The notes: generated by a model from the sequence alone, not told the origin. 64,000 bases of DNA from Candidatus Saccharimonadia bacterium (GCA_035544015.1 DATKIP010000064.1:2131-66130), one strand, 5' to 3'. Shown: positions 5,561 through 37,909, counted from the stretch's first letter. Numbers and translations are program-made.

Positions 5561-6105
5561 ACCTCCATCGGCGTCACGGCCGAAAGCAAAGGGTGTGCCT
5601 TGTCTTTATCCGACACAATTGCCTGATCCGCCCCGAGCGGCCAGGCAATGCCCAGCGCCGGATCAAACGCGTTCACCATGGTATATTCGGCCTCCGGCGA
5701 CCAATGCGCGTCCACCAGATATGTGTACGTTACGTTCGGCTCCAGCGTTTGGTAGCCATTCGCCACCCCTTGCGGCACAAATACCGCCTTCGCGGGCGTG
5801 ATCTCCAGGGTGTGCGTCCGGCCAAACCCCGGTCCTTTGCGCAGGTCGACCCACGCGCCAAACACGCGTCCGCCGGCCACCGAAATAAACTTCACCCACG
5901 GTTCCGTATGCAGCCCGCGTGTCACCCCCGCCTCGCCGTTGAATGAAAAGTTGTTCTGCACTACCTCAAAGTGGGGGAGACCGAGTGCCTCCATCTTCTC
6001 GCGCTGATAATTTTCCTTAAACCATCCCCGGTCGTCGCGGTGCACCGCCAAATCAATCTCGAACAGCCCCGGAATCGCCGTCTCGCGCACTGCCAAGTCT
6101 GCCAT
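5557..6105 (-). CDS. rfbC: dTDP-4-dehydrorhamnose 3,5-epimerase
   Basis: IPGLFEIDLAVHRDDRGWFKENYQ... RmlC cupin signature. Confidence 0.9.
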   Translation of the reverse strand: MADLAVRETAIPGLFEIDLAVHRDDRGWFKENYQREKMEALGLPHFEVVQNNFSFNGEAGVTRGLHTEPWVKFISVAGGRVFGAWVDLRKGPGFGRTHTLEITPAKAVFVPQGVANGYQTLEPNVTYTYLVDAHWSPEAEYTMVNAFDPALGIAWPLGADQAIVSDKDKAHPLLSAVTPMEV

Positions 6106-26189: not shown

Positions 26190-27097
26190 TCCAGGTCCTG
26201 CTTAATAATTTCCTTGCGCAGCCACATGCGGTCGGCCCTGGCTACATCGCCCTCAAACTTCACGCCCAGCAAGTCCGATACCCAGGCCTGCACGGCTGGG
26301 TCTTGGCAGACGAAGTAGCTGCTGCCCTCATTGACACTCACCACATTCACGAACCATTCGGGCTTCATCGCCGCCAGCTCCTGCTCGATGGTGGCCTGGT
26401 GCCGGCTCACCACTTCAGCCGCATCCCACACCACCAGCTGGCCAACGCCAAGCGGGCGCGGAAACGTCTTGAAGGTCAGAATTTTGGAGTCATTACGAAT
26501 AGACGTCGTGGCATCGGCCAAGATCGCTTCCTGGCACTCGGTGAAGTATTGAGCGGTCCAGCCGTCGGGAATGTCGGCGTGGGCGACTAGCGCTCTATAG
26601 GCGGTCCGATCACGCTCGGTCGTAACGTGCGCCTTAAAGTTCAAGGTGTTGTCCAAAATGCCCGATACCAGCAGCTTCGCGCTCGTTTCGCTCATGGTAT
26701 CGGCCAACCCTGCCGCCACCCACCGCTCGTAAACTAGCGTGCAAGCCGCACCGATAAACTCAATATGGGCCTTATCGCCAATTCGCTCCTGCCAATATTG
26801 CTCGAAACCTGGGTGATGGTCGATCACCTCGTCCACTCTGGCCAGATCCACAAACCGGTCGAAATGCTCCGGGTCGGAGATGTCGATGAGCGTAAACATG
26901 TCTGTGTCGTTGGGCGTGTAGGTGGTATTGAGCGGCGCCCGCCACGACCGCACCGTCTGACTGATGCTTTCGTTCCAGACCGCCGTGCTAACGGCCTGCG
27001 CCTGCTCGCCCCGAGCTTGCAGGAGTTCAGCATAAGCAATCGCCCCCGCATAGGCGTCTATATCCATATACCGCGACCCGGCAGTAACAATCCTCAT
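26186..27097 (-). CDS. DHH-family phosphoesterase (NrnA/pAp-phosphatase-like)
   Basis: DHH motif (IDHHPG) and DHHA1-like C-terminus; start placed at MRIVTAG. Confidence 0.7.
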   Translation of the reverse strand: MRIVTAGSRYMDIDAYAGAIAYAELLQARGEQAQAVSTAVWNESISQTVRSWRAPLNTTYTPNDTDMFTLIDISDPEHFDRFVDLARVDEVIDHHPGFEQYWQERIGDKAHIEFIGAACTLVYERWVAAGLADTMSETSAKLLVSGILDNTLNFKAHVTTERDRTAYRALVAHADIPDGWTAQYFTECQEAILADATTSIRNDSKILTFKTFPRPLGVGQLVVWDAAEVVSRHQATIEQELAAMKPEWFVNVVSVNEGSSYFVCQDPAVQAWVSDLLGVKFEGDVARADRMWLRKEIIKQDLE

Positions 27098-27211
27098 GCG
27101 TAGAACAATATCATAATCGTATAATGCGTAAAATATATACAAAAACAGAGAAACCGACCAAAAATGTATAGATATTTGACATTTTGTATAGTTTTAGTGC
27201 AAAATCTAAGC

Positions 27212-27943
27212 ATGCCTAAAAACAACAATTTAGTTCCGATAAGTGAGGCCGCAAAGTATTTGGGTGTTACGGTTATGACCTTACGGCGCTGGGATGAGTC
27301 AGGGAAGCTGCCGGCTCTTAAGAGTCCCGGCGGTCACCGATACTATCACCGAGACGCGCTTGAACGTTATAACGCCGAGCTTTTTAGATTGGCCCAAATA
27401 TGGGCAGCAAGTGACGTGGCGCCAAATCTCCCGCCGGCAGACTACTCCGATACGCAGGATAGATTTAGGGCCAGGTTAGACCGAATGGCCAATCTTATAA
27501 ACCAAAACCCCGAAACATCCGTAGCGGCATCTCTAGTTACTGCGATGGCAGGAGAAATAGGTAATAATTCATTCGACCATAACTTAGGAAATTGGCCCGA
27601 TATCCCAGGCCTATTTTTCAGTTACGATCTAAATAGGCGCATCGTTGTACTAGCCGACCGAGGGGTGGGAATTAAAGCGACATTATTGAGGGTGCGTCCA
27701 GAAATGAAAGATGATATTGAAGCACTAACGGTTGCTATGACAGAGTTTGTATCTGGCAGAACCCCCGAACAAAGAGGAAATGGCCTGAAGTTTGTGCGGA
27801 CAGTAGCGACACAGAATCCAATAGGAATTGCTTTGCAGTCGGGTGTAGCAATCGCCACAATTGAGAAGGAAGGTCCTAAAGAACTAAGAGTAAGGCTTGC
27901 AGATCACTTCATTCGCGGCACATTAGCTAGAATTGAGTATTAA
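27212..27943 (+). CDS. MerR-type HTH fused to a GHKL (RsbW/SpoIIAB-like) ATPase/kinase domain
   Basis: MerR/excisionase-like HTH ISEAAKYLGVTVMTLRRWDESG. N-box EIGNNSFDH, G1 DRGVGI, G2 GNGLKF. Low-GC, AT-rich upstream region. Confidence 0.6.
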   Translation: MPKNNNLVPISEAAKYLGVTVMTLRRWDESGKLPALKSPGGHRYYHRDALERYNAELFRLAQIWAASDVAPNLPPADYSDTQDRFRARLDRMANLINQNPETSVAASLVTAMAGEIGNNSFDHNLGNWPDIPGLFFSYDLNRRIVVLADRGVGIKATLLRVRPEMKDDIEALTVAMTEFVSGRTPEQRGNGLKFVRTVATQNPIGIALQSGVAIATIEKEGPKELRVRLADHFIRGTLARIEY

Positions 27944-27945
27944 TT

Positions 27946-28212
27946 ATGAGAATCGAACTAAAAAAATTCGGAGATGTTCTTACTTCCCGCCCAGCGGGCA
28001 AAGAGGCCTTTGCGGCAATACTCCCAACATTAAACCCCAACGAAAGCAATGTAGAGATCGACTTTAGTAGCGTTATTTCTCTTGCACCCTCTTGGGCTGA
28101 CGAATTCTTCAGAGCATTAGAGGAACTCTATGGGGATCGAGTTATCTATATGCCAAGTGATAATCCGTCTGTAAAAGCTACGCTGGCTATTATTCGTGAT
28201 CAAGCAAAATAG
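27946..28212 (+). CDS. STAS-like domain protein (DUF4325 family), partner of the upstream GHKL gene
   Basis: 88 aa with an EIDFSSV motif (conserved DF of DUF4325); 2-bp spacing from the upstream gene. Confidence 0.55.
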   Translation: MRIELKKFGDVLTSRPAGKEAFAAILPTLNPNESNVEIDFSSVISLAPSWADEFFRALEELYGDRVIYMPSDNPSVKATLAIIRDQAK

Positions 28213-28292
28213 GGTCCTACAAAACCGTACTTCGGGCTCTCCGAATCGACTTATGCCAATGTAAATAGTCCGACTCCAAGGCGTGGAGGACG

Positions 28293-30206: not shown

Positions 30207-30998
30207 TTAGAAGTGAGCCAGTACGTCCTCAACGCATTCTGCTAATCTGGTTAGAGTTGGGATTAGCGGCTCGGAGTGAACGATGCCATCAACATTAAAA
30301 GCGAGCTGAATATCAAACTGTGTATCATCGTGCGACGTGTCGCCTGAAGGAGTCGAGAAAAGTACGACTCCTTCGGATATCACCACTTTATCGTCTGGGA
30401 CTAACCCAATCTGCACGGATGGGGTATCCTGCGTCCACTCCATGCCTGGCTCATCAGCAAATGCTTTGCGGAAGTGAGCGCCAAGGTCTACCACCACAGC
30501 CTGATGATTGGCCGAGATAGATAGCATGAAATGGTGTTTATCGGTGATATCCAGCTTGTGAATCAACCAAAGCGAGTTATTCCCGCCCTCGTATGGGGCA
30601 AGGCCAGTAATCGTAGCGATATGCTCGGAAGACATTCCTCGGGTTTTTTGTAAGACGCCGTTAGCGTATGATTCGGCATCCTTAAATATCGGAAACTCGG
30701 TGGCTCGCCCAGGATCGACACCATTGGACAAGATAAGGGCGTAGTTTAAATGATCGAGCGCAGTACGCAAATTATGTATCACATCACCGGCTTGCGTTTG
30801 CAGTTCTGCCGGGATTTCCCGAACCGAAACCACCTGCCATTCTCGTAACCCTGTTTTTTTGTTATCAACAATGGCTACGTCATAGGGTCTGCTACCGTAA
30901 AATAACTGAGTCGTATTAGTCATCTCGCCCAATAGAATTTTTGCCCGCTCAAGCTTATGTCGGGCACTATTCAGGTTTGGCTGTGCGCTTGCTTCCAT
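30207..30998 (-). CDS. Hypothetical protein with HEPN-like Rx4H motif, in a low-GC patch
   Basis: NLRTALDHLNYAL contains R-x4-H in a helical context; no other recognisable domain. Confidence 0.4.
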   Translation of the reverse strand: MEASAQPNLNSARHKLERAKILLGEMTNTTQLFYGSRPYDVAIVDNKKTGLREWQVVSVREIPAELQTQAGDVIHNLRTALDHLNYALILSNGVDPGRATEFPIFKDAESYANGVLQKTRGMSSEHIATITGLAPYEGGNNSLWLIHKLDITDKHHFMLSISANHQAVVVDLGAHFRKAFADEPGMEWTQDTPSVQIGLVPDDKVVISEGVVLFSTPSGDTSHDDTQFDIQLAFNVDGIVHSEPLIPTLTRLAECVEDVLAHF

Positions 30999-31062: not shown

Positions 31063-31092
31063 ATCAAAAAGAGGCCCACAAAGGCCTCTTTT
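31063..31092. terminator. Bidirectional intrinsic terminator AAAAAGAGGCC-cacaa-aGGCCTCTTTTG
   Basis: GC stem with A and T tracts on both sides; seen in sequence. Confidence 0.55.
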
Positions 31093-31095
31093 GTC

Positions 31096-31114
31096 ATATA
31101 ATTCCTGGCTCCGA
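31096..31114. repeat. Direct repeat (attR-like): CA[T]ATAATTCCTGGCTCCG, duplicating the 3' end of tRNA-Asn
   Basis: A 16-bp perfect match (19 bp with 1 mismatch) to 32343-32361, which spans the 3' acceptor/CCA end of tRNA-Asn. Confidence 0.6.
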
Positions 31115-31149
31115 GTCGTATCGGAAGTCAGAACTGCTTTGAGAAGCGA

Positions 31150-31295
31150 AACCTAACAAAGAACCCAACATAGGGCACTAGGATGCTGACATAGAGAAAT
31201 AGCTTATGCCTAACAAAGAACCTAACATACAACTAACATAGAGTTGACATAGAACCTAACATAGAGTAAAATAGAACCTAACATAGAATTAGAGG
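31150..31295. repeat. Iteron-like array of direct repeats (core AACATAGA / GAACCTAACATAGA, at least 7 copies)
   Basis: Examples: CCTAACAAAGAACC[C/T]AACATA x2; GAACCTAACATAGA x2; ...gacatagag...; ...taacatagag.... Seen directly upstream of the wHTH gene. Confidence 0.55.
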
Positions 31296-31300
31296 AAGAT

Positions 31301-32335
31301 ATGGGCTTAAAAGAACAAATCTTAGAAGTAGCCGAGGCTAAAAAGCACTTTAAGACGGCCGACGTAATGGCCGCCATTAACGATGGCGCCGCTCGTTCGT
31401 ATGTCAGTACAGTAATTAACTCAATGGTATCCGATGGCGCCCTAGTTAGGGAAGGCTCGGGCAGATGGTCTATTTATGCCTTGCCAAAATACGCAGACAC
31501 ACTAGGCAAGAGAATAAAAAAGCGCTTGGCTAACGTCAGCCTTGAAGAATATGAAGTCTTTGACGCTATTAAGAAAGAAAAGCCTTTCTTAAATACCCTC
31601 AGAGAGAATATTCAAAGCGTTCTTGCATATGCTTTCTCAGAAATGCTTAACAATGCCATTGAGCATTCGGGAAGTAAAAACATTGAAGTTGAAATCCAGC
31701 AGCAAAAAGATAACCTCACCTTTGTCGTGAGAGATTTCGGCGTAGGAGTGTTTAGAAATGTTATGGCTAAGCGAGGGCTTGCTTCGGAACTCGAAGCCAT
31801 ACAAGACCTTCTAAAAGGAAAAACTACCACCGCACCTCAAGCCCATTCGGGTGAGGGCATTTTCTTTACTTCGAAAGCCGGCGACCTCTTTGTGCTTGAA
31901 AGCTATGGGCTGAGACTGCGCATTGATAATGTTATTAATGACGTATTTGTAGAGGAAGTTAAGGCTGACGTTCGAGGGACACAAGTTACATTTCAAATCA
32001 GCACAAAATCCAAGCGCCATCTGAGCGAAGTCTTTGCAGGATATCAGGTTGACCCGGAAGAACCTGCCTTCGACCAGACAGAAGTAAAGATTAGACTTTA
32101 CACAATGGGGACAATATATGTCTCAAGGTCTCAGGCTCGAAGAGTCTTAGTAGGACTCGATAAATTCAGAAGAATTATTTTGGACTTTGATAAGGTGCCA
32201 ACGGTCGGACAGGCCTTCTCTGATGAGATATTTCGCGTATTCCAATCCAGACATCCAGAAATCGAAATCGCCCCGGTCAATATGAATGACGCCGTCAAAT
32301 TTATGGTCGGTCGTGTAGATAAACCAACAAAATAA
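31301..32335 (+). CDS. Winged-HTH + GHKL ATPase/kinase + STAS-like (DUF4325) fusion protein
   Basis: N-terminal wHTH (VMAAINDGAARSYVSTVINSMVSDGALVRE). N-box EMLNNAIEHS, G1 DFGVGV, G2 GEGIFF. C-terminal DUF4325-like ILDFDKV. Low GC (~42%). Confidence 0.6.
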   Translation: MGLKEQILEVAEAKKHFKTADVMAAINDGAARSYVSTVINSMVSDGALVREGSGRWSIYALPKYADTLGKRIKKRLANVSLEEYEVFDAIKKEKPFLNTLRENIQSVLAYAFSEMLNNAIEHSGSKNIEVEIQQQKDNLTFVVRDFGVGVFRNVMAKRGLASELEAIQDLLKGKTTTAPQAHSGEGIFFTSKAGDLFVLESYGLRLRIDNVINDVFVEEVKADVRGTQVTFQISTKSKRHLSEVFAGYQVDPEEPAFDQTEVKIRLYTMGTIYVSRSQARRVLVGLDKFRRIILDFDKVPTVGQAFSDEIFRVFQSRHPEIEIAPVNMNDAVKFMVGRVDKPTK

Positions 32336-32351
32336 CGGCTTTGTAAAGCCG
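32328..32351. terminator. Bidirectional terminator hairpin AACGGCTTT-gtaa-AGCCGTT with flanking A/T
   Basis: Lies between the convergent CDS and tRNA-Asn. Confidence 0.5.
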
Positions 32352-32426
32352 TTATTCATCAAATAATTCCTGGCTCCGGAGGTCGGGCTCGAACCGACGA
32401 CCAATTCGTTAACAGCGAACTGCTCT
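32352..32426 (-). tRNA. tRNA-Asn (anticodon GTT) with encoded CCA
   Basis: Manual fold of TCCGGAGTAGCTCAGTGGTAGAGCAGTTCGCTGTTAACGAATTGGTCGTCGGTTCGAGCCCGACCTCCGGAGCCA: 7-bp acceptor stem, D-arm GCTC/GAGC, anticodon loop CTGTTAA, T-arm GTCGG/CCGAC with TTCGAGC loop. Confidence 0.85.
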
Positions 32427-32606
32427 ACCACTGAGCTACTCCGGATCACAATGTGGGCTGGCCCCATCGGGTGATACTACGAGATTATAGCGATGCGACT
32501 CGGCCTGGTCAATCACTGCGCAAAAAAGCGGCCAGAGATTACCTCTAGCCGCCGGGGGTGTGGAGACCGTTCGCTCCCATGCCCCCATCTCGTCTTGAAC
32601 GCGCGG

Positions 32607-33014: not shown

Positions 33015-33157
33015 ATTGCTCACCCTCTCGGTCAAGGTTCAGGACAAACCGCATTATAACATAAAACAAAGATAAATACTAGGATTCGACCCCACCAGAG
33101 TCCTGTATTATTTGGGATTTTCCCTATATAATGGGCAAACTTACTGAGGAGGTCGAA

Positions 33158-36100
33158 GTGAACCGCTTGAAACGTGCCGCTGCAATTGCCCTGATCGCCC
33201 TACTAACCCTATCCGGTCTCACGCTGCCCGTGCCCGGCGCACACGCCTCCACCCCCACCGGCTCCTCGATCAACACCCACACCGTCATGGTCGACGATCA
33301 AAGCAAAATCGTGTCGTGGGTGCCCAACCAAGACCAGGCCTATGCCACCGTGGCCGCCAGCGCCTGGAATTTCCTCCTTAATAACGTCCCCACCGACGAG
33401 CACGGCCTGCCTGGCTTCTACACCCACTCCTACTTCAACCCCGACACGCGTGAGCTGTCGTTCAACCCCCACAACCCGGCCGGCACCAATGCCATGCTCA
33501 CCGAATCCGCGCTCCAATACTACCAATATTCCGGTGACGCCCGCGTGCTCACGCTGGTCGAAAATTCCGTCACATACCACCTGGATCACGGCATGACTGC
33601 TGCCGGCGACAATTGGTCAAACGTACCCTACGCCAGCAGCGATTACGGCAACACCACCTACGCCGGCGCTAGCCGCGGCAATTCCGACGGCGTCGGTGAC
33701 GGCGTGGGCGTGATCGAGCCCGACAAAGTCGGCGAGCTCGGCGTCGCCTTCGTGCAGCTGTACAAGATCACCGGCGAGCAGAAGTACCTCACCGCCGCCA
33801 TCAATGCTGCCAATGCCCTCGCCAGCCACGTGCGCGCCGGCAACGCCACCCAGTCGCCGTGGCCCTTCCGCGTGAAGGCCTCCGACAACACCATCAAAGA
33901 GCAATACACCGCCCACACCATCAGCCCCATCGAGCTGCTCGACAATCTCATTGCGCTCGGTCAGGGCAACACCGCCTCGTATCAGTCCGCCCGCACCACC
34001 GCCTGGAACTGGCTCATGCAGTACCCTATGCAAAGCAACAACTGGAGCACCTACTTCGAGGACGTCGATTTCCATCCCGGCGCCAATAACAACACCCAAA
34101 TGAACTCCATAATGACCGCCCGCTACCTCTTGCAGCACCCCGAGTACGACGCCAACTGGGAGACGCACGTGCGCGGGCTGATCGCCTGGACCGAGCAAAA
34201 CTTTGCCGTACCCGCTTTCGGCGCCAACACCATCCAGGAACAGGCCGATTTTGCCCACCCCATGGGTAGCCACACCAGCCGCTACTGCGATGTGAACGCC
34301 TTGCTCTACCAGCGCACCGGCGACCTCGCTGCCAAAGAAAAAGCCTACCGCGCCTGCAACTGGGCCACCTACATGGCCCGCGACAACGGCGTGGTCATTG
34401 ACGGCCCCGAGATCAACAACGCCTGGTTCACCGACGGCTACGGCGACTTCATCCGCGGCATGATGGTAGCCATGGGCGGTTCGCCCGACTTCGCCCCCGC
34501 CGGCCAAAACCACCTGCTCCAAACCAGCTCCGTGGTCACGAACGTCACGTACGGCCCGTCGCAGCTCAGCTACTCCGCCTTTGAGGCCGCCGGCACCGAG
34601 GTCATCAAAGTCGCCAGCGCCCCCACCGGCGTCGCGATCAATGGCGTTAGCCTCGCTCAGCGCAGCGACCTGGCCGCCGAGGGCTGGACCTACGACGCCG
34701 CTCAAAGCGTGGTACGCGTGCGCCGCGATACGGGCAAAAACGTCACCATCGCACTCAACGGTACCCCCACCAACCTGCTTCCCAACGTGAGCCTCAGCAC
34801 CGGCGCCACCACCTACACCGCACCGGCCAGCTTCAACGTCACGGCCGCCGCCAGCGACCCCGACGGCACCATCACCAAGGTCGAATTCTACCAAAACGGC
34901 GCCCTCGTGAGCACTGTCACCACCACGCCTTATACCTTTGCCGCCGCCGCTCTACCCGCCGGCAGCTACGCCTTCAGCGCTCGCGCCTACGACAACCAAA
35001 ACGCCAGTAGCAACTCCAATACCGTTAGCGTCACCGTCAACGGTGCCTCCCAGGGTGGTACCTGGACCGGCGCCGACATTGGCACCACCGGCGTAGCCGG
35101 CTCCACTGCTGCCGCGGGCAGCGCCATTACCGTGAAGGGTGGCGGCACCGATATCTGGGGCACTGCCGACTCGTTCCAATTCGGCTACCAGCAAATGACC
35201 GGCGACGGCGAGATCAAAGCCCGCGTCGTCACGCAGCAAAACACCGACCCCTGGGCGCTAGCCGGCGTCATGATCCGCGACACCCTCGCCCCCGGCGCCA
35301 AAGAGACGCTAGCCGCCATGACCCCCGGCCACGGTGCAGCCTTTGACTACCGCACCGCCACCGGTGGCAGCACCACTTACGTCAACGGCGCCGCGGCCAC
35401 CGTGCCATATTGGATGCGCCTCGTGCGCGCCGGCACCACCATTACCGCCTCCAAATCCACCAACGGCACCGCCTGGACCAGCATGGGCAGTGCTACCGTT
35501 AGCCTCGGCACCACCGCCTACGTTGGCCTGGCCGTCACCTCGCACAACCCGTCCGCGCTCGGCACCGCCACCTTCGACAACGTCAGCTTCACCGGCCAGT
35601 CCACTGCCGACACCACCCCGCCCGTCATCTCGGGCATAAGCGTCTCCGGCGTGAACCCCAACGGCGCCACGGTCAGTTGGACCACGAGCGAGCCCGCCAC
35701 CTCGCAGATCGAATTCGGTCCCACCACCGCGTATGGCAGCTCCACCACGCTCAACAGCAGCCTGGCCACTGCTCACACCCAGGTAGTTCCCGACCTGGCC
35801 TCCGCCACCACTTACCACTACCGCGTCAAATCCGCCGACGCCGCGGCCAACCTGGCCACCTCGGCCGACAACACCTTTACCACCCCTACTCCGGCCGACA
35901 CCCAGGCCCCGTCGGCCCCCACCGGCCTCACCGCTACGGCCATTAGCTTTACCCAGGCCAATCTAAACTGGACCGCCGCTACCGACAACGTCGCCGTCAC
36001 CGGCTACCAGGTCTTCCGCGACGGCGTCCAAATCGGCACCGCCACGGGCACCACCTTTAGCGACGCCGCCCTCACCTTCAACACGAATTACACCTACACC

Positions 36101-37909
36101 GTGCGCGCCGTCGACGCGGCCGGCAACGTTTCGCTCGATTCTAATGCGGCCGCTATCACCACCCCCACGCCCGACACCCAGGCTCCCAGCGTACCCACCG
36201 GCCTCACCGCCAGCGTCACCCTGCCCAACCAAGTTGACCTCAGCTGGACCGCCGCCGCCGACGACACCGCTGTCACAAAATACCTCGTGAAGCGAAACGG
36301 CGCCGTCATAGCTCAACCCACCGGCACCACGTTCTCCGACACCACCGCCACCGGCGGTAGCACCTACAGCTACGTCGTGGCCGCCGCCGACGCCGCCGGC
36401 AACACATCGGCCAGCTCCGACCCAGCCACCGCCACTGTTCCCGACACCACCGCCCCCACCGCGCCCGTGAGCCTCACCGCCACGGCCGTTGCCGGGCCGC
36501 AAGTCAACCTATCCTGGGGCGCCTCCAGCGATGCCGTCGGTGTCACCAGCTACCTCATCTTCCGCGACGGCCAACCCCTCGACACCGCCACCGGCACGAG
36601 CTACTCGGACGCTAATGTAGTAACCGGCACCACCTACAATTACACGGTCGAAGCCACCGATGCCGCCGGTAACCTCTCCGCTGCCTCCAACACCGCCACC
36701 ATTACACCTCCCGTGCCCGACACCCAAGCGCCCACCGCGCCCACCGGTCTCACCGCCACGGCTGTCAGCTTCACCCAGGTGAACCTCGCCTGGACCGCCG
36801 CTACCGACAACATCGCCGTCACCGGCTACCAAATCTTCCGCGACGGCGCCCAGGTCGGCACCACCACTGGCACCACCTATGCCGACACCGCCCTGCTAGC
36901 CGGCAACAGCTACGCTTACACCGTGCGTGCCACCGATGCCGCCGGCAACCTTTCGCCCGCGTCCAACACCGCCACGGCCACCACGCCCACGCCCGACACC
37001 ACGCCGCCGTCGGCCCCCAGCGCCCTCACCGCCACCGCGCCCACCGGCACGCAGGTCAACCTCAGCTGGACCGCCAGCACCGACAACGTCGGCGTCACTC
37101 GCTACAATGTCCTGCGCGGCGGAACCCAAATCGGCACCACTACGAGCACGAGCTATGCCGACACCACGGTCGCCGCCGGCACCAGCTACTCCTACACTGT
37201 GACTGCCCAAGACGCCGCCGGCAACGTGAGCGCCGCGTCCAACACCGCCACCGTCACCACGCCGGCCCCGGTCGTCACGCTCGCCGTCGACACCCAAGTG
37301 GCCGTCCACACCACCACGGCCGCTACCACCATCACCTCGCCGGCCTTCACCACCGCCGGCCCAGGCGAGCTCCTCGTAGCCTTCGTCTCCTCCGACGGCC
37401 CCAGCGGCGCCTCCACCTTTAGCTCCGTCACCACCACCGGCCTCACCTGGACCCTGCGCAAGCGCCAAAACACCCAGGCCGGCACCTCCGAGATCTGGAC
37501 CGCCCCGGCCGCCGCCAAGCTCACGAATGCCACGGCCAAAGCCACCCGCACCGGTTCCTACCGCAGCTCCCTCGTCGTCACCGCCTTCAAGGGCGCCGAC
37601 CTCACGACCATCGGCGCCACCGCCGGAGCCAGTGCCGCCACCGGCGCCGCCACTGCCAGCCTCACCACCACCCGCGCGGGTTCCTGGGTCTGGGCCGTTG
37701 GCAACGACTGGGACAACGCCGTCGCCCGCACGGTCGGTACCGCCCAAACCAAAGTCGATGAGTTCCTCACGAGCACCGGCGACACCCTCTGGGTCCAGCG
37801 CCGCACCGCCGTCACCCCGGCCGCCGGCACCGTTGTTACCATCAACGACACCGCCCCCACCGCCGACCGCTACAACCTGGCGCTCATCGAGATTCTGCCC
37901 GCTCCATAG
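33158..37909 (+). CDS. Giant secreted multidomain protein: (alpha/alpha)-toroid-like N-terminal domain, Ig-like domain, concanavalin-like lectin domain, 6 FN3 repeats, and C-terminal beta-rich domain
   Basis: Signal peptide after the GTG start (GAGGAGG SD); the ORF track starts at ATG 33131, right after TATATAAT. FN3 repeats ...TGLTAT..L.WTAATDNVAVTGYQ.FRDG.... The lectin-like domain is GGTWTGADIG...GTATFDNVSFTG. Confidence 0.75.
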   Translation: MNRLKRAAAIALIALLTLSGLTLPVPGAHASTPTGSSINTHTVMVDDQSKIVSWVPNQDQAYATVAASAWNFLLNNVPTDEHGLPGFYTHSYFNPDTRELSFNPHNPAGTNAMLTESALQYYQYSGDARVLTLVENSVTYHLDHGMTAAGDNWSNVPYASSDYGNTTYAGASRGNSDGVGDGVGVIEPDKVGELGVAFVQLYKITGEQKYLTAAINAANALASHVRAGNATQSPWPFRVKASDNTIKEQYTAHTISPIELLDNLIALGQGNTASYQSARTTAWNWLMQYPMQSNNWSTYFEDVDFHPGANNNTQMNSIMTARYLLQHPEYDANWETHVRGLIAWTEQNFAVPAFGANTIQEQADFAHPMGSHTSRYCDVNALLYQRTGDLAAKEKAYRACNWATYMARDNGVVIDGPEINNAWFTDGYGDFIRGMMVAMGGSPDFAPAGQNHLLQTSSVVTNVTYGPSQLSYSAFEAAGTEVIKVASAPTGVAINGVSLAQRSDLAAEGWTYDAAQSVVRVRRDTGKNVTIALNGTPTNLLPNVSLSTGATTYTAPASFNVTAAASDPDGTITKVEFYQNGALVSTVTTTPYTFAAAALPAGSYAFSARAYDNQNASSNSNTVSVTVNGASQGGTWTGADIGTTGVAGSTAAAGSAITVKGGGTDIWGTADSFQFGYQQMTGDGEIKARVVTQQNTDPWALAGVMIRDTLAPGAKETLAAMTPGHGAAFDYRTATGGSTTYVNGAAATVPYWMRLVRAGTTITASKSTNGTAWTSMGSATVSLGTTAYVGLAVTSHNPSALGTATFDNVSFTGQSTADTTPPVISGISVSGVNPNGATVSWTTSEPATSQIEFGPTTAYGSSTTLNSSLATAHTQVVPDLASATTYHYRVKSADAAANLATSADNTFTTPTPADTQAPSAPTGLTATAISFTQANLNWTAATDNVAVTGYQVFRDGVQIGTATGTTFSDAALTFNTNYTYTVRAVDAAGNVSLDSNAAAITTPTPDTQAPSVPTGLTASVTLPNQVDLSWTAAADDTAVTKYLVKRNGAVIAQPTGTTFSDTTATGGSTYSYVVAAADAAGNTSASSDPATATVPDTTAPTAPVSLTATAVAGPQVNLSWGASSDAVGVTSYLIFRDGQPLDTATGTSYSDANVVTGTTYNYTVEATDAAGNLSAASNTATITPPVPDTQAPTAPTGLTATAVSFTQVNLAWTAATDNIAVTGYQIFRDGAQVGTTTGTTYADTALLAGNSYAYTVRATDAAGNLSPASNTATATTPTPDTTPPSAPSALTATAPTGTQVNLSWTASTDNVGVTRYNVLRGGTQIGTTTSTSYADTTVAAGTSYSYTVTAQDAAGNVSAASNTATVTTPAPVVTLAVDTQVAVHTTTAATTITSPAFTTAGPGELLVAFVSSDGPSGASTFSSVTTTGLTWTLRKRQNTQAGTSEIWTAPAAAKLTNATAKATRTGSYRSSLVVTAFKGADLTTIGATAGASAATGAATASLTTTRAGSWVWAVGNDWDNAVARTVGTAQTKVDEFLTSTGDTLWVQRRTAVTPAAGTVVTINDTAPTADRYNLALIEILPAP
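35900..37270 (+). repeat. Tandem array of five near-identical FN3-encoding repeats (~270 bp each), plus one diverged copy upstream
   Basis: Recurrent DNA blocks CCGACACCCA(G/A)GC.CC...ACCGGCCTCACCGC and protein blocks DTQAPSAPTGLTATA...; it is intragenic. Confidence 0.7.

Follow-up and report, generated by a model that had tools for sequence, protein, structure and literature searches.

A putative autoregulated partner-switching protein with a fused DNA-binding domain on a small single-gene cassette of Patescibacteria

We analysed a gene at positions 31301-32335 (plus strand) of a 64,000-nucleotide (nt) stretch of DNA from Candidatus Saccharimonadia bacterium (GCA_035544015.1, DATKIP010000064.1:2131-66130), hereafter called the window. 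The gene was confirmed as a single open reading frame (ORF) of 344 amino acids (aa) with three domains, namely a winged helix, a GHKL domain and a DUF4325 STAS-like domain. The initial annotation of this DNA had proposed the same composition, and its domain boundaries held under profile and fold searches. The reading that we favour, with a probability somewhat above even, is that of an autoregulated partner-switch regulator in one polypeptide, which would be wired directly to DNA and carried on a cassette mobilised in trans. What is new here is the fusion of a kinase/STAS-like pair of the partner-switching type to a DNA-binding domain, along with a predicted family-wide self-operator and a small recombinase-less cassette in the candidate phyla radiation (CPR). 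The coding sequence comprised the following parts:

31301-31486, plus strand: part 1, winged helix-turn-helix (HTH), aa 1-62
31487-31600, plus strand: part 2, linker of two helices and one strand, aa 63-100
31601-32050, plus strand: part 3, GHKL (Bergerat-fold) ATP-binding domain of the anti-sigma serine-kinase type, aa ~101-250
32072-32320, plus strand: part 4, DUF4325 STAS-like domain, aa ~258-340

In the winged helix, the recognition helix corresponded to aa 32-44, with an invariant R32, and the wing to aa 49-60 (G-S-G-R-W). The central domain showed the Bergerat fold and the motifs of the anti-sigma type of GHKL proteins (HATPase_c_2). Its N-box (E-x3-N-x3-H; E114/N118/H122), its G1 motif (D-x-G-x-G; D145-x-G147-x-G149) and its lid/G2 segment (H182-S-G-E-G-I-F-F-T-S) were invariant in the family, and all nucleotide-binding motifs were intact in the window protein. 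The nearest solved structures were anti-sigma kinases of the SpoIIAB/RsbW type, whose natural partner is a STAS protein. The C-terminal domain matched Pfam DUF4325 (PF14213) over aa 281-333 with 46.9 bits against a cut-off of 23. The same profile was matched in all 58 relatives, and the GHKL and DUF4325 domains were fused in every one of the 58 family members. Invariant positions of DUF4325 in the fused family were S275-R276, D295-F, G303-Q304 and D308-E309, while T301 was kept in at least 90% of the proteins. The mean column identity of the family alignment was 61%.

Other classifications of the protein were also considered. A two-component sensor histidine kinase was rejected, since neither the fused protein nor its 58 relatives matched a HisKA-family (DHp) domain and no response regulator was encoded nearby. 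The kinase models of NCBIfam matched within the ATP-binding segment only and scored 12-24 bits against cut-offs of 290-920. PADLOC gave marginal Avs2 and AbiEi matches and NCBIfam gave sub-threshold kinase and Avs2 matches, none of which was used for classification.

The fused protein belonged to a large family. An identical sequence had already been deposited as 'DUF4325 domain-containing protein [Candidatus Saccharimonadia bacterium]', and a word-indexed protein search with the fused protein returned at least 5,760 matches. An exhaustive profile search (E <= 1e-30) yielded 855 clusters at 50% identity, nearly all of them 330-360 aa long and matching end to end. In a scan of one genome per species, the family was carried by at least 579 species, nearly all of them Patescibacteria/CPR, including Saccharibacteria, Levy-, Doudna-, Peregrini-, Gracili-, Lloyd- and Nomurabacteria and other groups. 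Relatives were labelled 'anti-sigma regulatory factor (Ser/Thr protein kinase)' by JGI. At least 80 copies were examined, all in chromosomal-looking contigs, and a tblastn search with the fused protein detected no relative among 50,697 phage records and 72,556 plasmid records.

The DNA upstream of the gene contained a repeat array that overlapped a promoter:

31154-31286, plus strand: array of 10 direct repeats with the unit ~CTAACATAGA, predicted operator of the protein's own winged helix
31244-31272, plus strand: sigma-70-like promoter inside the array, with -35 TTGACA at 31244-31249, a 17-nt spacer and -10 TAAAAT at 31267-31272

The units began at 31154, 31166, 31187, 31211, 31223, 31234, 31245, 31257, 31267 and 31279. 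Ten copies of TAACATAG with no more than one mismatch lay within the array, and all eight matches of CTAACATAG in the window fell inside it. The promoter agreed with the consensus at 11 of 12 positions. Its -35 hexamer was itself one of the units, and further units were located in the spacer and over the start region.

Arrays of this kind were found throughout the family. At least three copies of an 8-mer occurred within 150 nt upstream of the gene at 77 of 79 family loci, with a mean of 4.06 copies compared to 2.35 in 422 control upstream regions from the same loci. Most members had only 3-4 units, typically arranged as two pairs, while the window copy had expanded to 10. Neighbouring units were mostly spaced by whole helical turns, with 47% of the distances at 10-12 nt, 36% at 20-23 nt and 7% at 32-34 nt. 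At the 77 loci, direct repeats with a phase of 11/22/33 nt overlay a sigma-70-like promoter, and at 65 of them a -35-like hexamer within a unit was followed by a -10-like box at 16-18 nt. The density of a locus's own unit was 24.7 per kb in the 160 nt upstream of the gene and 0.24 per kb in the remaining ~10 kb, a difference of about 100-fold. The 79 loci contained one secondary cluster, in an AT-rich region at 6012-6059 of locus L035, upstream of an 89-aa gene that we read as a CsoR/RcnR-like repressor. This cluster was probably due to chance, and no regulon beyond the family's own gene was found.

The sequence of the unit also varied together with the protein. The majority unit was GTT(G/T)ACAAT(T), and the clade of the window protein used CTAACATAGA. 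Gln directly after the invariant Arg32 was paired with TT(G/T) on the 5' side of the ACA core (p = 3e-6), the wing residue Trp56 with TAG on the 3' side (p = 5e-8) and Thr54 with A(T/C) on the 3' side (p = 6e-12), kinship among the 68 unique proteins being ignored in all three tests. Mixed combinations existed as well (for example, Q and GRW with TTG-ACA-TAG), a pattern that independent reading of the two halves of the unit by the helix and the wing would produce. Since the array overlapped the promoter, was phased family-wide, covaried with the predicted DNA-reading residues and was enriched upstream of its own gene, it is best read as the protein's putative operator rather than a replication origin, and binding of the protein would occlude the promoter. 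The initial annotation had called the array iteron-like. As a description this was accurate, but the function that the term implies was probably wrong. The typical arrangement of two pairs of units, the coincidence of array and promoter, the presence of one winged helix rather than two and the lack of a plasmid copy all disfavoured it.

The gene and its array were enclosed by repeats that included the end of a tRNA gene. The boundary features were the following (strand is given where one applies):

31070-31089: G+C-rich hairpin AGAGGCC-loop-GGCCTCT with A-run and T-run flanks, just outside the left repeat, read from the sequence
31098-31113, plus strand: left copy of the 16-nt exact direct repeat ATAATTCCTGGCTCCG, attL-like core, within an imperfect repeat spanning 31080-31113
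31103-31142, plus strand: degenerate copy of the tRNA-Asn 3' end, motif TGGCTCCG.GTCGT..TCG..GT.AGAACT, nhmmer E 3.1e-8
32330-32357: hairpin with a 12-bp stem over the stop codon, resembling a terminator of tRNA-Asn on the minus strand
32363-32378, plus strand: right copy of the 16-nt repeat, attR-like core, its last 8 nt being the tRNA-Asn 3' end
32371-32445, minus strand: intact tRNA-Asn (GTT), insertion target, Rfam 69.9 bits

The repeat ATAATTCCTGGCTCCG consisted of the last 8 nt of tRNA-Asn and 8 nt of downstream DNA, and its two exact copies in the 64 kb were 1,265 nt apart. The boundary motif and the tRNA-Asn 3' end were identical at 18 of 20 aligned bases with one 2-nt gap; neither ARAGORN nor Rfam called 31103-31142 as a tRNA. 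The tRNA-Asn at 32371-32445 was the only tRNA at the element. The earlier description as tRNA-flanked was thus right for one side, while the other side had only a repeat of the tRNA 3' end. The hairpin at 31070-31089, which was not listed by a terminator scan, probably lay directly behind tRNA-Asn until the insertion separated them and originally served as its bidirectional terminator, and the hairpin at 32330-32357 probably acts in both directions.

The unit between the repeats held one ORF, and its DNA was 42.7% G+C compared to 60-64% in the host, a deficit of 18-21 points. In every host examined the cassette was 41-45% G+C and below its flanks. A relative with 96% identity (L012) was located between different genes and without a tRNA, and its DNA was 91% identical to the window over 1,279 nt, from 31100 to 32377, i.e., from repeat to repeat. 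This supported the proposal of the initial annotation that a small element with defined ends lies beside a tRNA and carries this gene alone. Relatives with 92% and 90% identity were found in two further contexts, and a relative with 75% identity (L006) abutted the 3' end of a tRNA-Asn with a 13-nt repeat. When the regions from -300 to -60 and from +1 to +150 around the gene were searched, an exact repeat of at least 13 nt bracketed the gene at 9 of 75 unique loci but at only 7 of 1,484 mismatched controls (~25-fold, p = 7.5e-9). The bracketed units were 1.17-1.35 kb long, and their repeat cores, lying within longer imperfect repeats, varied by locus; one core was the 5' end of a tRNA-Ser. Of the properties of a tRNA-targeted integrative element, we found repeats that include the tRNA end, foreign composition and occurrence in other contexts, while an integrase encoded by the element was absent.

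Two short contigs from close relatives contained stretches resembling cassette arrays. The ~38-nt boundary motif occurred five times in one orientation in L008 (at 724, 1940, 2489, 3224 and 4704) and four times, likewise in the same orientation, in L010 (at 2164, 2466, 3660 and ~5168). There it separated small unrelated genes, including those for an acetyltransferase, peptidase S51, TspO and NUDIX proteins and short ORFs, as tandem insertions at one site would produce. No integrase was visible on these contigs. A metagenome scan with a degenerate boundary pattern returned one uninformative high-G+C contig with an internal inverted duplication (L097), and inspection of the boundary motif by eye, with no folding or IntI search made, found no conserved attC-like hairpin. 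We conclude that the gene and its predicted operator form a compact cassette that would be mobilised in trans.

The window contained a second module with a comparable order of domains, encoded by two adjacent genes:

27212-27943, plus strand: MerR-type HTH and GHKL-fold protein of ~243 aa counted from M17 (the listed 259-aa ORF starts at 27164)
27946-28212, plus strand: 88-aa stand-alone DUF4325 protein, 2 nt after the first gene

The true start of the first gene was probably M17 at 27212, since its relatives were 240-243 aa long. Pfam recognised only the MerR-type HTH in the 259-aa ORF. The AlphaFold2 model of the protein (predicted local distance difference test, pLDDT, 81) matched, with E-values of 2.6e-4 and weaker, ATPase domains from topoisomerase II and from Hsp90, GRP94 and TRAP1. 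This confirmed a GHKL fold, and the split pair shared the three-domain logic claimed for it. Both this protein and the fused one matched phrog_3364, at overlapping profile positions. The S-R, D-F and D-E-x-F motifs were invariant in both the split and the fused DUF4325 domains, which also had a hydroxyl residue in common at the position of T301. The split pair, adjacent and 2 nt apart, recurred in two unrelated genomes. Together with the fusion in 58 of 58 members and the structural similarity to kinases with STAS partners, this supported the earlier suggestion that the GHKL and STAS-like parts work together. In contrast, the term 'paralog' did not survive alignment of the two modules. The GHKL parts were compared by BLASTP with E = 2, the DUF4325 parts with E = 5e-4 at 19% identity, and hhalign of the two family profiles aligned the N-box, G1 and G2 in order but weakly (E 0.041, probability 1.3%). 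As the direct GHKL comparison was insignificant, the shared GHKL core rested on the fold searches and phrog_3364. Each module belonged to its own large family, and the GHKL domains resembled different subgroups. The two modules are apparently remote relatives, acquired independently with parallel architecture, and not recent paralogs. Thus, the modules had in common the order of HTH, Bergerat-fold ATPase and DUF4325, as well as the shared motifs, phrog_3364 and low G+C content, whereas the split module differed by its MerR-type HTH, by a GHKL domain nearer to Hsp90/topoisomerase II than to SpoIIAB, by its division into two genes and by the lack of a multi-unit array.

The split pair lay in a low-G+C insert (27000-28215, 45%) between host genes of 55-60% G+C, for which direct repeats at the two ends were not reported. 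Upstream of its MerR-type gene (27150-27215), we noted TTGACA at 27176-27181, a spacer of ~18-19 nt containing TGTATAG, which also occurred ~20 nt earlier, and then CAAAAT, separated by only ~6 nt from the ATG at 27212 that is the probable start. This arrangement points to a long-spacer promoter in the style of MerR systems and to an mRNA of the first gene with almost no leader. The split-type GHKL domain had no tblastn match in the phage records. A Francisella prophage has been reported to encode a 112-aa DUF4325 protein after a 293-aa hypothetical protein (Fhv_0046/0047), between the CI repressor and the integrase (PMC7924643). The size of the 293-aa protein fits phrog_3364 (profile length 304), and by this size match the prophage is a likely candidate for a phage-borne GHKL and DUF4325 pair.

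The following mechanism would account for these observations. Through its winged helix, the protein would assemble on the array into an oligomer that occupies one face of the DNA, and in this way it would repress its own transcription. The oligomer would be nucleated by GHKL dimers, as in SpoIIAB and RsbW, both of which are homodimers (PMC7693655). Each dimer would present two winged helices to two units 11 nt apart, and such pairs would stack along the DNA. The GHKL and STAS-like domains would act as a kinase/antagonist pair within one chain or between subunits. ATP/ADP-dependent docking or phosphorylation, possibly at T301, would then alter oligomerisation and DNA affinity, so that expression would respond to the nucleotide state or to some ligand. 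This change of assembly is proposed by analogy with SpoIIAB-SpoIIAA and with Rv1364c, a fused protein that autophosphorylates its STAS domain (PMC9138534, PMC7693655). The model predicts that changing residue 33 from S to Q and the wing from GRW to TRS would shift the unit preference from CTAACATAGA to GTTGACAATT. The cassette, which has no recombinase, would depend on one supplied in trans for its insertion at the 3' (or 5') ends of tRNA genes, and an excised circle, if formed, would carry the junction TCATCAAATAATTCCTGGCTCCGAGTCGTATCGG.

Several points weigh against this interpretation. Regarding the protein, we found no functional study of the family or of DUF4325 in the literature searched. 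The fused protein did not match the canonical STAS families of Pfam (PF01740/PF13466) at E <= 0.1, and a comparison of the DUF4325 profile with PDB sequences gave no link to a solved STAS protein, so that the STAS assignment of the C-terminal domain rests on the Pfam DUF4325 family and a compatible predicted beta-alpha fold. T301 aligned with Ser in the split DUF4325 proteins, its register with Ser58 of SpoIIAA not being fixed, and the AlphaFold2 model of the fused protein had an uncertain inter-domain geometry (predicted template modelling score 0.59). Neither a linked PP2C phosphatase of the SpoIIE/RsbU/SiaA type (within ~5 kb) nor a linked sigma factor gene was found in the window or in seven homolog contexts. 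Binding of the winged helix to the array is something we infer from sequence, and the covariation tests ignored shared ancestry, with the window clade supplying several of the variant cases. Regarding mobility, 66 of 75 loci had no clear bracketing repeats (exact, at least 13 nt), and tRNA adjacency was rejected as a hallmark of the family (~9 of 80 loci compared to ~5 expected, ~2-fold). A domain search found no recombinase or integrase in the unit or among its neighbours over ~5 kb on either side (26.2-37.9 kb), and no empty target site or circular junction was observed, no read-level search having been made.

The strongest rival explanation, which we nevertheless consider unlikely, is a selfish addiction device or anti-phage sentinel, i.e., a single-chain system resembling toxin-antitoxin or abortive infection. 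Its winged helix would autoregulate like type II/IV antitoxins, the GHKL kinase would be the effector and DUF4325 a built-in inhibitor that a signal of phage attack or stress would free. Such a device is consistent with the foreign composition and the horizontal mobility, and also with the match of both GHKL modules to phrog_3364. The winged helix also gave a weak AbiEi-like signal (E 0.0024 for AbiEi in PADLOC; Pfam AbiEi_4 matched 7 of 58 members, at E 0.001 in the best case), and DUF4325 genes have been reported as transcriptionally coupled to a VapC/PIN group (PMC5499597) and occur in the accessory region of the Francisella prophage (PMC7924643). In a CPR2 genome (L003, 3833-11163), a homolog was located among SocA/Panacea, AAA_15/AAA_21, RhuM and HTH-methyltransferase genes. 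However, there was no significant PADLOC match and no recognisable toxin or nuclease domain, homologs were absent from the phage and plasmid records, and an identity of 61% is high for a defence gene. Most contexts were housekeeping or miscellaneous, that of L003 being the only one of seven to resemble a defence or mobile island. The AbiE (AbiEi/AbiEii) system itself was rejected, given the marginal E-values of both AbiEi models (0.001 at best for AbiEi_4) and the lack of an AbiEii gene. Of the associations with mobile elements and defence islands that had been suggested for checking, the one with defence islands was not shown, with heterogeneous contexts and no convincing PADLOC score. Less probable still is a conventional anti-sigma factor, whose GHKL domain would sequester a sigma factor encoded elsewhere while DUF4325 served as a built-in anti-anti-sigma factor and the winged helix set the protein's own level. 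The top structural matches and the JGI label point in this direction, and the operator unit of most members includes the -35 hexamer TTGACA, a hint of interplay with sigma-70-type recognition. On the other hand, neither a linked sigma factor gene nor a PP2C partner was found, and a mobile single-gene cassette moving between lineages would be an odd vehicle for a host-specific sigma regulator.

An ordinary, non-mobile chromosomal regulator appears more doubtful again. The repeats would then be duplicated terminators or chance, and the G+C anomaly a trace of old transfer. The many loci without exact repeats, the weak tRNA adjacency and the missing recombinase fit this explanation, and at one locus (L071) the bracketing repeat was a terminator hairpin. 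It is opposed by the enrichment of repeats over controls with a constant unit length, by the similarity to L012 that stops exactly at the repeats, by the 90-96% identical relatives in three unrelated neighbourhoods and by the G+C deficit. We regard it as very improbable that the 1.27 kb unit replicates, or once replicated, as an autonomous circle with the array as iterons and a Rep-like initiator. In iteron plasmids, direct repeats lie next to an autoregulated winged-helix initiator gene, and the direct repeats of ~11 and 22 nt beside this winged-helix gene, together with the expansion to 10 units in the window, resemble that arrangement. However, the array coincided with the promoter, most members had only 3-4 units, and the model contained a single winged helix and not the tandem pair of Rep proteins. 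To our knowledge, GHKL and STAS domains do not occur in replication initiators, and every copy was in a chromosomal-looking contig with no plasmid homolog. Finally, the unit of 1.2-1.35 kb might be a minimal CPR mobile element of a new kind, with a single protein whose role goes beyond its own regulation. Coating the terminal array, this protein would join a host recombinase in excising, integrating or maintaining the unit, or else it would promote the spread of the cassette as a device for addiction or defence in a single chain. We hold this to be improbable, about on a par with the anti-sigma explanation. If it were true, the tRNA-3'-end-like sites between small cassettes would represent an integron-like accretion system at tRNA genes.

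The favoured interpretation as a DNA-wired partner switch sets the protein apart from known systems. SpoIIAB-SpoIIAA, RsbW-RsbV and UsfX-RsfB are pairs of proteins, whereas the window protein is one chain with a DNA-binding winged helix; in addition, its partner domain is DUF4325 and not a canonical STAS domain, and no PP2C or sigma factor is linked. Rv1364c of Mycobacterium tuberculosis combines PAS, PP2C, GHKL kinase and STAS domains in one polypeptide of 653 aa and acts on SigF. It thus has a sensor and a phosphatase but no DNA-binding domain, while the protein of 344 aa, from a family almost restricted to CPR, has a winged helix and a predicted self-operator. SiaB and SiaC of Pseudomonas aeruginosa are separate proteins from the four-gene siaABCD operon and, unlike the window protein, have no DNA-binding domain. 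AbiEi antitoxins and further winged-helix repressors that regulate themselves (BlaI/MecI, ArsR, MarR) typically bind inverted repeats as symmetric dimers, in contrast to the direct phased arrays of 3-10 units described here. With tRNA-targeted integrative islets, the recombinase-less IMEX and pdif modules and integron cassettes, the unit shared its small size, its bounding repeats that include a tRNA end, its foreign composition and its occurrence in several contexts, and the tandem small cassettes split by the same site in L008 and L010 also resembled cassette systems. It differed from them in that no integrase was found in or near the unit, in that the site was neither dif-like nor attC-like as far as seen, and in that the repeat cores varied between lineages.

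The surroundings of the cassette had some features of their own. Immediately to its left, a 263-aa ORF (30207-30998, minus strand) had 47.9% G+C in the 60% G+C host. It had no Pfam, NCBIfam, PHROG or PADLOC match. Among 5.8 billion proteins only 20 relatives were found, which came from scattered phyla and were without exception hypothetical proteins. The ORF may represent another foreign islet at this tRNA. Just to the right of the tRNA, a secreted-looking protein of 1,592 aa (33131-37909, plus strand) contained many tandem fibronectin-III-like repeats and was very T/A/S-rich. The host DNA was 60% G+C overall and 64-70% in places, and the deposited protein was labelled Candidatus Saccharimonadia; 60% is high for this group.

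In the tiny genomes of CPR/Patescibacteria hardly any regulators can be recognised, and the ways in which these bacteria perceive their own state or exchange genes are almost entirely obscure. For a large family annotated only as 'DUF4325 domain-containing protein', the analysis provides a concrete model with a predicted operator, an ATP-binding switch, the candidate residues N118, D145 and T301 and a defined 1.27 kb unit. DUF4325 itself gains a functional context as an obligate partner of GHKL ATPases, either fused or adjacent. If the proposed interpretation is true, the protein would be the first module of the partner-switching kind with a demonstrated direct action on DNA, and the unit would be one of the rare recombinase-less single-gene cassettes that circulate among CPR genomes.
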